Sequence record: OR544955 | DNA: 64,000 nt | Source: Escherichia phage vB_EcoP_EP32B | Strand: one strand, 5' to 3' | Shown here: positions 9,423-63,127 of the stretch, piece after piece | Numbering within the stretch: the stretch's first letter is position 1 | How the letters are laid out: every line of letters begins with the position of its first letter | The notes under the pieces: generated by a model | Told to the model about the DNA's origin: nothing | The model's database searches: none | What the model saw: only the letters and a program-made list of their open reading frames with translations | Program-made: the position numbers and the translations under genes

Positions 9423-10951
9423 TTAGATGCCTTTTACATATACACGGCGGAAGTAAGCGTTCTTACCAAGGCTGTTCAGGATAGACGGCATACCGGACTG
9501 GATGCGAGCACCTGGAGCCTGCAGGGAACTTTCAGCAAACGGGTTAACACCGATACCGTAACGAGTTTTGAAGCCCATTACCGGCTGGAAGTTCTTAGGA
9601 TCAGAACCACGCAGTGGGGTAAGTGCAACGTAAGGAGCATAGTAAATACCTGCATCCATTTCGTTAGCGCCTTTGTAACCAACGGTGAAGTAATCCTGTT
9701 TAGCATACTGGTCGATGTATACGCGGTATTTACCACCAAGTACACCGGCAAATACAGACTTAGTAGTGTCGGTATTAAAACCAGAAGCCAGACCCTGTGC
9801 AGCGTAAGAAATACCAGTATCAACTGAAGCCAGTACGTTAACTACGTTACGGGAAGCGATAATGAAGTTACCTTCACCACGACCGGTTTGACGAGCAATT
9901 TCAACTGCTTCTTTATCAATCTGGAACAACAGAGATTTAAAGCTTTCACCGGCCCAACGAGCACCACGGATATCAATCGGGTCCTGGAAGTCAAATACAC
10001 CAGCTTTAGAACCCGGAGTCAGGGTCATACCGGATTTACCAACCTGTGCTGAGTAGTTAATCCAATCAACAACTTCACGGTTGATTTCTAGCATAATTTC
10101 TGTAGCCAGAATACCACTCAGTTCAGCATCAGCATCCATACCGTGTACTGCACGGAGGTCTTGTGCTAATTCGATAGAGTAAGCAGCTTTCAGCTGGCGA
10201 GATTTAGCTTCGATAACTTGTTTATCGATACGGAAGCCCATTTCATTCCATGGGTTATCGGTAGAACCGTTGAAACCTTCCTGAAGTTCAGCGATAGAAG
10301 TAGCCATACCTTCAGCGATTTCTACCAGTGCACCAGCTTCCATTTGTTTCTTAACTTCGGCATCTAATTTAGCAGCATCGGTCGCATCGATTGTTACTTG
10401 AACAGAAGCTTGCAGATATACAGTACCAGTTTCCTGGAAGAAGTGAGTGCCAGAGCTGGGAATTTCTTAGCAGCACCCTGACCAGAGAACATCGCATCTG
10501 GGGCATACATCGGATGGAAAGCTTCTTTAGCGCCAGCAGCGATAGGGTCTTTACCATATACTGCACGGAGAGCAAATACCTGACCGGTCGGGCTGTTCAT
10601 AGGCTGAACACCACAAATATCAAAAGCGATCAGATTAGGAATAGCACGACGAACCATACCCATAACTGCTGGCCCAATTTGGGTTACTGCACCAGAGGTT
10701 TGACCTGCTGCGATGTTCTGAGCATTATAACCATGGTCACCACCAATTTCAGCTTCGGTCAAGAAAGAACCAAATGCCTGAGCGATTTTCTCGTCTTTAT
10801 ATTCAGGGGATACTTCGAAATCTTTTTCCTGGTTTTCGAAGATTTTAGCGATAATAGCCTGCTTGCTATTAGCGATTTCCGGCAGGCCTTCACCTTCCAG
10901 CAGTTCTTTCCATTTGTCTACGAGCTGAGCTTTAGTTTTGATAGTAGTCAT
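9423..10951 (-). pseudogene. 23: Major capsid protein gp23, disrupted by a frameshift near 10445-10455
   Basis: N-terminal 168 aa (ORF 10394..10951) and C-terminal part (ORF 9423..10343, frame open upstream to ~10450) both match T4 gp23 but lie in different frames. Confidence 0.85.
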
Positions 10952-11811: not shown

Positions 11812-11819
11812 TATTTATA
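11812..11819 (-). promoter_or_regulatory. T4-type late promoter for gene 22
   Basis: TATTTATA on + upstream of gp22 start 11781. Confidence 0.5.
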
Positions 11820-12428
11820 ATGCTTTTAAACTCTCTGCGAGAGCTTTAAATGCTTCATCAGCACTGTTTTTGGTGATTTCCACCGAATTTTCTGATTCTG
11901 ATATTTGTTTAGGAGTAACCCAAGCATCTGGAGCAGAAGGTCCCCACACGGCATCTACGCCGACGGTTAATTTAAATCCTTCGTTCACGATACGGTACCC
12001 TTTATTGGTGTCGGTTAAAGAACCAAGACCACGAGAGGAAACACCTGGAATCCAACCAGCTCGTATATTAGCAGCTAATTTATCGCCGGGACCATGGTCG
12101 CCTTCAATAATTCTAGCGCGTCCATATACATCGTTTCCTTTCCACCACATATCTTCAATAATGATAGCGGCTTGCATAGGGTCAACATTTGCGCGAGGTG
12201 GATGATTTAATTCTCCAAGGGCTTGTTTGGTTGCGCTTTTTCCAAAACGCGTTTAGGATATAAACGTTTATTTCGGTTAACAACCTCTGCCTGAAGAAAA
12301 ATACCTTCTATATAAAGCCCTGGTTTTAAGCCAGAATCTTTTCCATCATGAGATTCCAACATTGGAACGCCATCAATAATCTCACCGGGTTGACCCCAAG
12401 TTTCAATAAGTAACTCGGGTTTATTCAT
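11815..12428 (-). pseudogene. 21: Prohead core protease gp21, disrupted by a frameshift near 12207-12235
   Basis: N-terminal 65 aa (ORF 12207..12428) and C-terminal 138 aa (ORF 11815..12177, frame open upstream to a stop at ~12250) are in different frames. Confidence 0.8.
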
Positions 12429-12853
12429 TAGCTTAATCCTAATGCTTTACGACGTTTAAGAGCTTTTTTACGCTTACGCAAGCCTTTAACTTGGCCTGAA
12501 GGGTTAGCTTTTTTAGCTTTAACGACCTTACGAGCGATTTGTCTACGTTTTGCTTTAGAAAGACCAGTGGTTTGGAACGCATTACGTTCACGAGTTTTAC
12601 GGTCTTTAGTGCGGGTGACTTCACCACGAGAAGAAACATGTTTAACGATAAACTCGTTTAACTGTTCTTCATTAATAATGGAAGCCATTGCAACAGCTAA
12701 ATCCGTTTCAGTTTCAAGCATGTTCTCGATAATAGTATTTATATCGTCAATATCGAGAGCAGAAGACAATGCATCGATTCGGCCCTGTGCTTCAGGAATA
12801 AGTGCTTCGACATTTTCGAGTACCAATTCATAAGATTCAGGGATAAGATACAT
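12428..12853 (-). CDS. 68: Prohead core protein gp68
   Basis: 141 aa as in T4; position. Confidence 0.75.
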
Positions 12854-20552: not shown

Positions 20553-21281
20553 TTAATTCATAAACCCATCGTCAAATGGTGAATTTTGTCTACCACGGTT
20601 GTTAACTACTACATACGGCTCAACGTATTCACTTGCCTCTGAATTGATTTGCTCAACTTCAGAATATTCATCGATATTAATGTCATGGATACCGTCAAGA
20701 TTTCTAACAGGGTTAAGTTCCAAGTCACTAAATTCAGGTATATTGATACCTTCATTTTTCTGAAGCACCGGATTGATTTCTTCGCCAGAGTAAATAAACT
20801 TGCCTGCAGTAATTTTACGAATCGCATTTTTACCTACTTGATAGAACGGGTCATATGGTTCAACCCAGTTAATCTCAAACAAACTGTTGTCCATTGGGAA
20901 GTATATCAAATCACCTTCCTTGGGCTCCTGATTGTTGACCTGGTGTTTGAAAAGACCTGGGTTAATAGATAATGTAACTTCGTCTTGAACTTGCATTCCG
21001 AAGTTGCTGAAGAACGATTTCGCTCCTTCATAACCTTCAAAAGAGTTCAGATATGCAGCAAATTTCCATGCTTTAGTAAATTTATTTTTAAGGTCCTCAC
21101 CAAAGATAAGGTCCACGGCAACATATTCACGTGGAACATAAAAACATTCAATACCGCGCATCTGTATGCTTTCTGCCACTAGAACATCGGCTAATGTCTG
21201 ACTATTCTCATAATTATTAAAATTAGAATACCCACCACGATTTTCTAGCTTGGCGAAAAGATTTTTATCATAAGTTGCCAT
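20553..21281 (-). CDS. 14: Neck protein gp14
   Basis: 242 aa (T4 256); position. Confidence 0.8.
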
Positions 21282-37301: not shown

Positions 37302-37876
37302 TATGCAATCTCCATCTCACGAATCAAATCAGTAATAAACGAGTTTATATCTTCTTTTGCAACAATTTTTATTTTACGAAGTTTTTCATTATCTAATACT
37401 GCCGCTTCGTAAGTATCTACTGCAGCTAAAGGTCCTTTATATTGCGGATACTTACGAGCTTCATCACCTTTATCGTACCACACTAAAGGCTCGTCCGGAT
37501 ATGAAACTAAATTGTAAAATTTCTCACGATTTTCATTGATATGATAAAGAACTTGGTCTCCACCGGCATTAGCATATTTCTGAATAGAAGCTTGATACGC
37601 TGCTTCCTGAGATGTAATCCAACCATAATACGGGTCGTAGTTATCGTTACACATCAAAAGAACCCAGTATAATTGAGGGTTGCCATAAATTATGTTTGCT
37701 AGTTCTTCAGGACGCGGAGAGCCTTTAATATAATAAGAACGTAATCTATAATTGGCAGCAACACGCTTAAAGTACTCTTTATAGTTACGAAATATGTCTG
37801 TCATAGGAATAGTAGGTGCATTCTTATTAACTGTTTTAGCACTATATCCTATTGGGTCGAAGAATGTAAATAACAA
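37301..37876 (-). CDS. 53: Baseplate wedge protein gp53
   Basis: 191 aa; position upstream of gp5. Confidence 0.8.
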
Positions 37877-37903
37877 GATAGTCTCCTTCCAATATGAAAT
37901 TGG

Positions 37904-37926
37904 TATAAATAATAATACTATTTATA
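37904..37926. promoter_or_regulatory. Divergent late promoters for gene 4 (+) and gene 53 (-)
   Basis: TATAAATA on + at 37904-37911; TATTTATA on + at 37919-37926. Confidence 0.5.
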
Positions 37927-37937
37927 AGGAGGACAAC

Positions 37938-39134
37938 ATGGCCTACTCTGGTAAATGGGTCCCAAAAAATTTAAAAAAATACCGTGGAGACCATACCAAA
38001 ATAACGTATCGTTCAAACTGGGAAAAATTCTTTTTCGAATGGTTAGATAAAAATCCAGAAATTATTGCATGGGGTAGTGAAACAGCAGTAATTCCATATT
38101 TTTGTAATGCTGAAGGTAAAAAACGTCGATACTATATGGACATATGGATGAAAGATGCATCAGGTCAAGAGTTCTTTGTAGAAATAAAACCAAAGAAAGA
38201 AACTCAACCACCTATTAAGCCTGCAAATCTTACTACCGCAGCAAAGAAACGTTATATGAATGAAATATATACCTGGTCTGTGAACTGTGACAAATGGAAA
38301 GCTGCCTCAGCTATGAGCATATTCCAAATTATATCTGAAGGCGTACAAGCCCCTAAGATTGCTCAGTCTATGAATGAAAGAAAATGGATTGAGATAGGAT
38401 TAGAATACAAGAAAGCTAAAGAGAAAGGAATCACTGCAAAAGCATTTGCAGAATCAAAAGGAATAAAATACTCGTCGTTTACATCTGCAATGTCTAGATA
38501 TGCATCATCTATTAAGACCGCACAGAAAATTGAAACGCTTGAATCTAAACCTAAAAATAAACTCAATAAGCAAGAACGTCAACTTCTGATGATAAACTCG
38601 TTTCGCAGTTCAATACGAGAAAAGATTAGAAATGAAGGCGCAGCAGTAAACAACAAATCATCTAAGTGGTTTGTTGAAACAATTAAGAAAAGTGTAAAAG
38701 GTCATAAAGTAGTCAAGCCTACGCCAGGCAAAATTTATACTTACGTGTATGATGCTAAACATAAAGATACTCTGCCGTATTGGGACAGATATCCTTTGAT
38801 TATTTATTTAGGATTAGGTAAACATAATTTGATGTATGGATTAAACTTGCACTATATCCCACCTAAAGCACGACAACAGTTTCTTGAAGAATTGCTGAAG
38901 CAATATGCTAGCACAACTACTATTACTAATAACACAAAGTTGAAGATAGACTGGAGCAAGGTGAAAGGATTTCAAGGTGCTGACAAAATGATTAAAGCAT
39001 ACCTGCCTGGCCACATTAGAGGAACAATAACAGAAATAGCTCCTAAAGACTGGGCTAACATAATCATGTTACCTACTCAGCAGTTTATGTCAAAAGGAAA
39101 ACGTTTCTCTGCGAATACTGTTTGGAAATCTTAA
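37938..39134 (+). CDS. Head completion gp4-like N-terminus continuous with gp2-like (DNA end protector) region in a single 398 aa ORF
   Basis: ATG 37938 with AAGGAGG SD; one uninterrupted frame where T4 is recalled to have two genes (4 and 2). Confidence 0.5.
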
Positions 39135-42851: not shown

Positions 42852-42990
42852 GGCCCTGTAGCTCAATGGTGCAGTAGCTGCTCTGGAAAACCTGTTCCAA
42901 ATTGCAACAGAAGAACGCGAAGAAGTTACATTATGGATTGAAGATAACGCAGGTCTGAATCTCCAGGACGCGATCTCATTATCCCACAAT
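42852..42990 (+). other. Non-coding region with tRNA-like fragments (probable decayed tRNA cluster)
   Basis: GGCCCTGTAGCTCAATGGT resembles acceptor/D-arm; ...GATCTCATTATCC resembles a tRNA 3' region; no complete cloverleaf could be folded by eye. Confidence 0.3.
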
Positions 42991-44970: not shown

Positions 44971-45092
44971 TATGAATAGTTCTAAAGTGTTTAATAGTCA
45001 AGCTCGTGCAGTAGGTGGTTTTGCTCATGCGATTAAAAATGACCAGATTAAAAACGAGCCTATGTTCTTTTGTATTTGATTCACGAGTCCAC

Positions 45093-47984: not shown

Positions 47985-48056
47985 ATGAAAACTCCAACCT
48001 GTAATAATGTCGAGCCCAAGTGCGGTAATGGGTTGCCACGGAATGGCCCAACATAA
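47985..48056 (+). CDS. Possible 23 aa Cys-containing micropeptide
   Basis: ATG 47985 after AAGGAA SD; MKTPTCNNVEPKCGNGLPRNGPT. Confidence 0.25.
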   Translation: MKTPTCNNVEPKCGNGLPRNGPT

Positions 48057-51760: not shown

Positions 51761-51969
51761 ATATACATTATCCACATCCATATGACCCAAAGAATAAGGC
51801 AGTAATTATTCGTCAATGGGAACGCATTTGCCGTACTAAATGCCCAATTAATAGTCCACATGATGTAGATAAAGACTATATTGGAACATTCGTTGAATAT
51901 ACCTTTATTGATAAGAAAGGTCGTAAACAACATGTAGAAGAATATTGCTTAAAGGTTACATGGTTATGA
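51742..51969 (+). CDS. Hypothetical protein
   Basis: 75 aa ORF overlapping tk 5' end. Confidence 0.4.
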   Translation: MGTIIMNIHYPHPYDPKNKAVIIRQWERICRTKCPINSPHDVDKDYIGTFVEYTFIDKKGRKQHVEEYCLKVTWL

Positions 51970-52496
51970 GTCTTACTGCCGCCCATAACTATAAAGAACG
52001 TGGCATGGGTGTATTAGTTCTTAAACCGGCTATTGATACTCGCGATTCAAAAGGTGAAATAGTCTCTCGTATTGGTATTCGTCAGGACGCCAATATAATT
52101 ACAAAAGACATGGATATCTTTGAATTCTATAAATGGGCTGCAGCACAAAAGGATATTCATTGTGTATTTGTTGACGAAGCTCAGTTCTTAACTACTGAAA
52201 AGGTGTATCAACTTAGTCGTATTGTTGACGTATACAATGTGCCGGTAATGGCATATGGACTACGAACAGATTTTAAAGGTAATCTATTTGAAGGTTCTCA
52301 AGCATTAATGGCTATTGCCGATAAGCTTGTTGAACTTAAAGGTGTCTGTCATTGCGGTAAAAAGGCCACAATGGTAGCTAGAGTCACGGAAGACGGACTT
52401 CCAATTACAGATGGCAGTCAAATTGAAATTGGTGATACTGATAGATATGTGTCATTATGCCGGAAGCATTGGAATGATTTGACAGGGTTGTTATAA
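51960..52496 (+). CDS. tk: Thymidine kinase lacking the N-terminal P-loop (5'-truncated tk)
   Basis: Matches TK from ...AAHNYKERGM through C-terminal Zn motif CHCGKK...LCRKHW; no GxxxxGKS upstream in any frame; in-frame stop at 51924. Confidence 0.7.
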   Translation: MVMSLTAAHNYKERGMGVLVLKPAIDTRDSKGEIVSRIGIRQDANIITKDMDIFEFYKWAAAQKDIHCVFVDEAQFLTTEKVYQLSRIVDVYNVPVMAYGLRTDFKGNLFEGSQALMAIADKLVELKGVCHCGKKATMVARVTEDGLPITDGSQIEIGDTDRYVSLCRKHWNDLTGLL

Positions 52497-62674: not shown

Positions 62675-63088
62675 ATGAATATTTCTGAAACTCGCGGTAA
62701 ATGGTTCAAGATTGTTAAAGAAGACGAAGAACTCCAAGATAAGTTTCCTGAATTAAAGAAAGATACGATCATCAAGGTAATTGGTACTACTACCGAAGAT
62801 GGTTATGGCGACCATGGCATTATCGAAGTGATGTTGAACACAGGTGAGAAACTTTGCATCTATGACCGTGATACTTCTCTTTGGTGCTTCTGGGAATCCC
62901 ATTCAATAGATGAACTCGAAGAAATTGACCAAGTAGTTTGTGATGGTGGTCTTGGCGAATTCGAAGGTGAACGTATTTCTTATGCTTTAGCTAAATTAGC
63001 CGGTCAAGAAAATAACGACGGTTATGAAGGTAATCTGATGCAAGCAGCCGCAGAATACATTGAATATTTAGAAAGACGTTTAAGTTAA
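62675..63088 (+). CDS. Hypothetical acidic protein (Pin position)
   Basis: 137 aa; ATG overlapping upstream stop. Confidence 0.45.
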   Translation: MNISETRGKWFKIVKEDEELQDKFPELKKDTIIKVIGTTTEDGYGDHGIIEVMLNTGEKLCIYDRDTSLWCFWESHSIDELEEIDQVVCDGGLGEFEGERISYALAKLAGQENNDGYEGNLMQAAAEYIEYLERRLS

Positions 63089-63127
63089 GTAATAAATACC
63101 CTTATCTATTTAAGGTAAGGGTTTATC

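Follow-up and report, generated by a model that had tools for sequence, protein, structure and literature searches.

The gene 2 product of bacteriophage T4, gp2 (also named gp64; PHROG 429, PF26869), is a DNA end protector that binds DNA ends and shields them from RecBCD (PMC3012670, PMC2993671). T4 requires it solely where RecBCD is present (PMC2993671). The gene 4 product, gp4 (also named gp50 or gp65; PHROG 218, PF08722), has the N-terminal fold of a TnsA-like endonuclease. According to Rao and Black the two genes 'likely are associated in function' (PMC3012670). Among the T4-related phages both are part of the core genome, together with genes 14, 21 and 23 (PMC2993671). The gene 23 product, gp23, is an essential capsid protein (PMC3012670). 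No solved structure with detectable sequence similarity to T4 gp2 or gp4 was found.

In T4, gene 4 is divergent from gene 53 and lies upstream of gene 2, which is followed by gene 3. Intact gp4 is a free protein of about 150 amino acids, and gp2 is encoded by a gene with its own ribosome-binding site. The T4 record (NC_000866) gives 453 nt (150 amino acids) for gene 4 and 825 nt (274 amino acids) for gene 2, so the lengths given in the preliminary description were right. The standard gene pairs of Mosigvirus consist of a 450-nt and an 822-nt gene with 2 nt between them. In MM02 (QBQ79209.1 and QBQ79208.1) they encode 149 and 273 amino acids, and this pair and that of O157 typing phage 3 (YP_009592808.1 and YP_009592809.1) have about 98-99% nucleotide identity to the locus described here.

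The whole stretch of DNA analysed, a 64-kb window, belongs to a Mosigvirus, i.e. a T4-like phage, and is about 98% identical to many sequenced phages. The gp4-gp2 locus shares 98-99% identity with over 150 genomes of Mosigvirus (T4-like phages of E. coli and Shigella, Straboviridae). Gene 4 has the same genome position as in T4 and Mosigvirus, next to the divergently oriented gene 53 and ahead of gene 2, and gp2 is upstream of gene 3 as in T4. The neighbours on the minus strand are gp5 and gp53, and on the plus strand the locus is followed by genes at the positions of gp3, gene 1 (dNMP kinase), 57A and 57B in the annotation of the relatives. The local order is thus that of T4, with 53 on one strand and 4-2-3-1-57A-57B on the other. 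Unlike other Mosigviruses, however, the window lacks 77 nt across the boundary between the two genes, and a single frame covers both. The features of the locus are as follows.

37904-37911, plus strand: motif TATAAATA upstream of gene 4, presumably a late promoter of T4 type, read from the sequence
37926-37932, plus strand: ribosome-binding site AAGGAGG of gene 4, 5 nt 5' of the ATG, read from the sequence
37938-39134, plus strand: fused ORF gp4(1-125)::gp2(1-273), 398 codons
37938-38312, plus strand: gp4 (head completion) codons 1-125, the last 24 codons and the stop being absent; from MM02 identity, PHROG 218 and PF08722
38312-38313, plus strand: deletion junction with 77 nt lost, placement ambiguous by one T; from alignment with MM02 and ECO26.1
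38313-39134, plus strand: entire coding sequence of gp2 (DNA end protector), 273 codons and stop; from identity to MM02 and P0001, PHROG 429 and PHROG 32288

The promoter and the ribosome-binding site of gene 4 are of the same type as in T4; the promoter role of TATAAATA is our assumption from the T4 late-promoter consensus. The frame is open from the ATG at 37938 to the TAA at 39132-39134, as the preliminary description had stated. A longer version proposed by the ORF finder (37794-39134, 446 amino acids) was rejected, its N-terminal extension having no homology and overlapping gene 53 on the opposite strand.

Protein alignment with MM02 shows that residues 1-125 of the ORF are identical (100%) to residues 1-125 of gp4, and that residues 126-398 are identical (100%) to residues 1-273 of gp2. 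The ORF is thereby 24 residues shorter than the sum of the two Mosigvirus proteins (149 and 273 amino acids) and, as first noted, 26 shorter than the T4 sum. The proposed identity of the two parts was borne out by the profiles as well: PHROG 218 (head closure) matches residues 1-126 (2.4e-50) and PHROG 429 (DNA end protector) residues 203-397 (2.1e-80), with a helix-turn-helix (HTH) module at residues 126-203 and a further match to PHROG 32288 in the gp2 part. An open frame of 398 codons with 100% identity to known proteins cannot be a chance occurrence.

The two parts differ in how complete they are. Residues 1-125 align with T4 gp4 without gaps, and the TnsA-like nuclease N-terminal domain of Pfam (PF08722) lies at residues 39-125 and matches the 125-residue gp4 part at 2e-14. 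Only positions 1-70 of the 85 in the model are covered, compared with 1-85 in intact gp4 of MM02 and T4. The gp4 part thus has the sequence match and the conserved position between gene 53 and gene 2 expected of a member of the family, but neither the complete domain nor the C-terminus. It lacks the last 24 residues and the stop and runs into gp2. The gp2 part is 77% identical to T4 gp2 with all 273 residues present, and 100% identical to the protein P0001 and to gp2 of MM02. It matches its family at full length but has no independent translation start with both a ribosome-binding site and an ATG, and is readable solely as the C-terminal portion of the 398-residue chimera.

The locus was compared with the 153 records that cover at least 80% of the gp4-gp2 region. 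Among the best 40 of these, all 40 align in two pieces and span 1878 nt against the 1801 nt of the query, which shows that 77 nt are absent from the window. A three-way alignment of the window, MM02 and ECO26.1 3-1 gives the exact gap: the flanks are identical and the lost block is TGTTGCTGAAAAGAGAAATATAAAATTTCGAGTTCTAACCGAAGATGGNCTTAGNAAACTCGGATACAAGGGGTAAT. These 77 nt consist of 75 nt of gene 4 (codons 126-149 and the stop) and the 2-nt spacer, and gp4 codon 125 therefore reads in frame into the ATG of gp2. The in-frame deletion suspected in the preliminary description thus describes the sequence correctly as far as the gene 4 stop is concerned, but the start codon of gene 2 (38313-38315) has been retained and it is the ribosome-binding site, AAGGGG at 6 nt 5' of the ATG, that falls within the lost block. 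The junction has 1 nt of microhomology. A deletion mediated by a repeat or a hairpin was considered and rejected, as folding of the wild-type segment is not significantly better than that of shuffled sequences (z = -1.9), and neither a stem nor a repeat bridges the endpoints.

The fusion was not found anywhere else. Genes 4 and 2 are annotated separately in MM02, O157 typing phage 3, EP32a and T4, as in all Mosigviruses fetched, and a Logan contig has the identical gp2 as a gene of its own after a gp4 of 149 amino acids. The deletion junction was absent from IMG/VR, the GTDB genomes and the JGI metagenomes as well as from complete E. coli genomes and PLSDB plasmids, and the exact chimeric protein was absent from 153 billion recorded gene positions. 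The best 120 matches among 5.8 billion proteins include no protein with both gp4 and gp2, and their coverage of the query never exceeds 69%; a fusion would score higher than matches of the size of gp2, which makes its absence from these 120 informative. An exhaustive HMMER search through 1.84 billion cluster representatives gave a similar result, the best 150 having one half or the other but never both. The only match in two stretches, P0123, turned out to be a gp2 homologue with a duplicated N-terminal module and not a fusion. These searches, together with the extra 77 nt in the relatives, speak against the suggestion that the lineage has a natural fusion, and the same continuous ORF was not seen in the related genomes or proteins of the DNA collections and the two protein libraries searched. 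Five proteins of 270-330 amino acids from distant relatives (P0151, P0198, P0208, P0226 and P0243) have the gp4-like (TnsA-like) domain at the C-terminus, without fusion to gp2.

The 77-nt deletion is one of many. When the whole window is compared with O157 typing phage 3 (NC_041863) a series of clean deletions appears, without comparable insertions. At least 14 deletions, i.e. the one of 77 nt and at least 13 others, are specific to the window and range from 28 to 4925 nt.

1840: 50 nt, 3' end of a small ORF
10448-10449, minus strand: 34 nt, frameshift in the gp23 major capsid gene, leaving the ORF fragments 10394-10951 and 9423-10343
about 12236-12250, minus strand: 28 nt, frameshift in the gp21 prohead protease gene, junction imprecisely placed
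21224-21225, minus strand: 36 nt, in frame, near the N-terminus of gp14 (neck or head-completion protein; 20553-21281)
38312: 77 nt, gp4-gp2 boundary
41402: 286-614 nt (614 nt relative to NC_041863), region of the internal-protein genes
42870 (42852-42871, plus strand): 4.3-4.9 kb (4925 nt relative to NC_041863), beginning after the first 19 nt of tRNA-Met and ending within a small ORF
45070: 92 nt, hypothetical gene
45913: 35 nt, membrane-protein gene
47992 (47992-48034): about 400-419 nt replaced, with 41 nt in place
49578: 146 nt, small hypothetical gene
51972-51973, plus strand: 446 nt, start codon of a small upstream ORF joined in frame to about codon 20 of thymidine kinase
60076: 133 nt, hypothetical gene
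62239: 216-240 nt (216 nt relative to NC_041863), in frame, small gene

Two of these deletions disrupt essential genes. In the ORF list gp23 (9423-10951, minus strand) is divided into fragments of 185 and 306 amino acids, and gp21 (11815-12430, minus strand) is cut down to an ORF of 120 amino acids compared with 213 in the relatives. Every close relative sampled aligns over the gp23-gp21 region in three pieces, with an extra length of about 68 nt, and the alignment with T4 is split too; neither these relatives nor T4 have the deletion in gp23. The in-frame deletion in gp14 leaves 242 amino acids instead of 254. The deletion at 51972-51973 has created a second in-frame fusion (51945-52496), which reads MSLTAAHNYKER... 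and gives a thymidine kinase without the nucleotide-binding P-loop. With the deletion at 42870 a tRNA-Arg and about a dozen small genes were lost; the small ORF now joined to the remnant of tRNA-Met is found 4.3-5.3 kb further on in the relatives, and ARAGORN finds no tRNA anywhere in the 64 kb. The last 24 kb of the window correspond to 29-33 kb (29.4-32.7 kb) in every listed relative. The deletions at 1840, 41402, 45913, 47992-48034, 49578 and 62239 are mostly within small non-essential early genes.

A fifteenth difference falls outside this series. At 63076-63089 the pin-gene 49 intergenic allele falls short of that in typing phage 3 by about 190 nt, and this is a natural variant of many Mosigviruses; EP32a and mar005P1 share the short allele.

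None of the junctions in the series was found in EP32a, ATK47, mar005P1 or the contigs of ECO26.1. Fifteen junctions were also searched as concatenated 52-mers, a query that seeds matches only across a junction, against 50,697 phage records. A first search (E <= 10) was flooded by the natural allele at 63089, and the search was repeated without that segment at 1e-8. No match spanning a junction was then obtained, and the sole matches were one-sided, of 36 nt, beside the imprecisely placed gp21 junction.

The series shows no mark of selection. The breakpoints look random and are mostly intragenic, only 2 of 13 deletion lengths are divisible by three, and a tRNA has been halved. Mean microhomology at the 11 clean junctions is 0.82 nt, compared with 0.72 +/- 0.30 nt expected at random for the same deletion sizes.

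EP32a (OR544954.1), the relative with the fewest alignment pieces, shares none of the deletions in the structural genes. The deletions at 45070 (92 nt) and 60076 (133 nt) are each only a few bases away from a natural indel in EP32a, of about 86 nt and of 129 nt (in frame), respectively. They were considered as deletions common to both phages, but they are different events that nearly coincide. This near-coincidence hints at an artefact of a reference-guided or mixed-strain consensus, since a consensus error fits deletions beside EP32a indels better than purely random loss does. It was also considered that the window might consist of concatenated contigs, with the contig ends of ECO26.1 3-1 at the junctions of the window; this was rejected as NODE_4 extends 211 nt past the junction at 42870.

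The gp4-gp2 fusion is almost certainly a sequence defect. The fused ORF is very probably the mechanical product of a 77-nt deletion that is found in the window alone, in an artefactual sequence or a defective molecule, and does not represent an evolved gene fusion. An evolved fusion would be expected to recur as the same ORF in independent relatives and to stand in an otherwise intact genome, and neither was found. The most parsimonious view is that one process gave rise to the gp4-gp2 deletion and the others alike, and the many events, the lack of insertions and the lethal hits together favour an artefact. With gp23 and gp21 frameshifted no heads would be formed, which means that selection has not acted as a filter on the sequence as it is written. 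The window in this form is a non-viable genome. The cause is probably a production route that dropped stretches of DNA, for instance if no Ns were inserted when coverage gaps or contig joins were closed. Later editing, or errors in a reference-guided or mixed-strain consensus, might have had the same effect, and a non-viable molecule would be a less likely source.

Some observations point away from an artefact. The gp4-gp2 join is in frame, which by chance would happen once in three, and apart from the deletion the gp4 and gp2 parts show 100% conservation. Ns are absent from the window, as is the small-scale noise that a poor assembly typically has. Two deletions elsewhere in the series adjoin natural indels of EP32a, which is unexpected if loss was purely random. 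Furthermore, the probable association in function of genes 2 and 4 (PMC3012670) means that a fusion is biologically not absurd.

It is possible, but unlikely, that the deletion is real and belongs to a defective or mutant molecule, either from a deletion-laden sub-population or from a laboratory mutant sustained by co-infecting wild type. The fusion protein would then exist without being under selection. The clean junctions and the lack of Ns, the good base-level quality with few small indels and about 98% identity to relatives, and the position of some deletions near natural indel sites are all consistent with such a molecule. However, 14 independent deletions including lethal frameshifts in gp23 and gp21 far exceed the damage in known T4 deletion mutants, and nothing similar was found in the viral, genome and metagenome contigs or the 50,697 phage records searched. 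Deletions in T4 normally arise between short direct repeats, whereas the junctions in the window have no excess of microhomology. If the DNA was real, the late promoter and the ribosome-binding site of gene 4 would direct the synthesis of a chimera of about 45 kDa. The gp4 part of this protein would be without the last 15 positions of the conserved domain with the TnsA-like nuclease fold, its gp2 part would bear an N-terminal appendage of 125 residues, and little or no free gp2 would be produced.

That the window derives from a viable Mosigvirus with a covalent gp4(1-125)::gp2 fusion, the other deletions being errors in the record, is very improbable. The chimera would in that case carry out both head completion and DNA-end protection, with the two parts acting together at the portal and the DNA end. 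The in-frame join, the intact late promoter and strong ribosome-binding site of gene 4, the entire gp2 part and the probable functional association of the two genes (PMC3012670) would suit a working fusion protein. On the other hand, the fusion is absent from all 40 listed relatives (of 153), from the phage records and from two very large protein libraries. The conserved domain of gp4 is truncated, the same sequence has frameshifts in gp23 and gp21 and is non-viable as written, and there is no bias across the deletion series towards keeping the reading frame.

Least credible of all, with next to no chance of being correct, is that two products are still made by a restart at 38313, giving gp2 of 273 amino acids beside a chimera with truncated gp4: the internal ATG looked for since the preliminary description is indeed present and the gp2 coding sequence behind it intact, but the native AAGGGG is gone, the 20 nt now upstream (AATGGAAAGCTGCCTCAGCT) offer only a GGA about 14 nt away and lack a ribosome-binding site at a distance that could be used, the loss of the gp4 stop precludes coupling of termination and reinitiation, and intact gp4 would be missing even if free gp2 was made.

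If a viable phage did carry the fusion, it would be natural 'Rosetta-stone' evidence that gp4 and gp2 work as one unit at the portal and the DNA terminus, and the C-terminal quarter of the nuclease-like fold of gp4 would be dispensable. A real and viable fusion would also open a genetic approach to what gp4 and gp2 do, which is poorly understood. The presence of a dozen further unique deletions, two of which destroy essential genes, shifts the reading from an interesting variant to a defective or artefactual sequence, and the fused ORF is best classed as no real biological feature. The main import of the finding is therefore a warning about quality, in that the 64-kb window is not faithful to a viable T4-like genome. 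Genes that appear 'fused', 'truncated' or 'missing' here should first be compared with the list of deletions, and this holds for gp4-gp2 and the split genes of gp23 and gp21 as much as for the thymidine kinase without P-loop and the lack of tRNAs.
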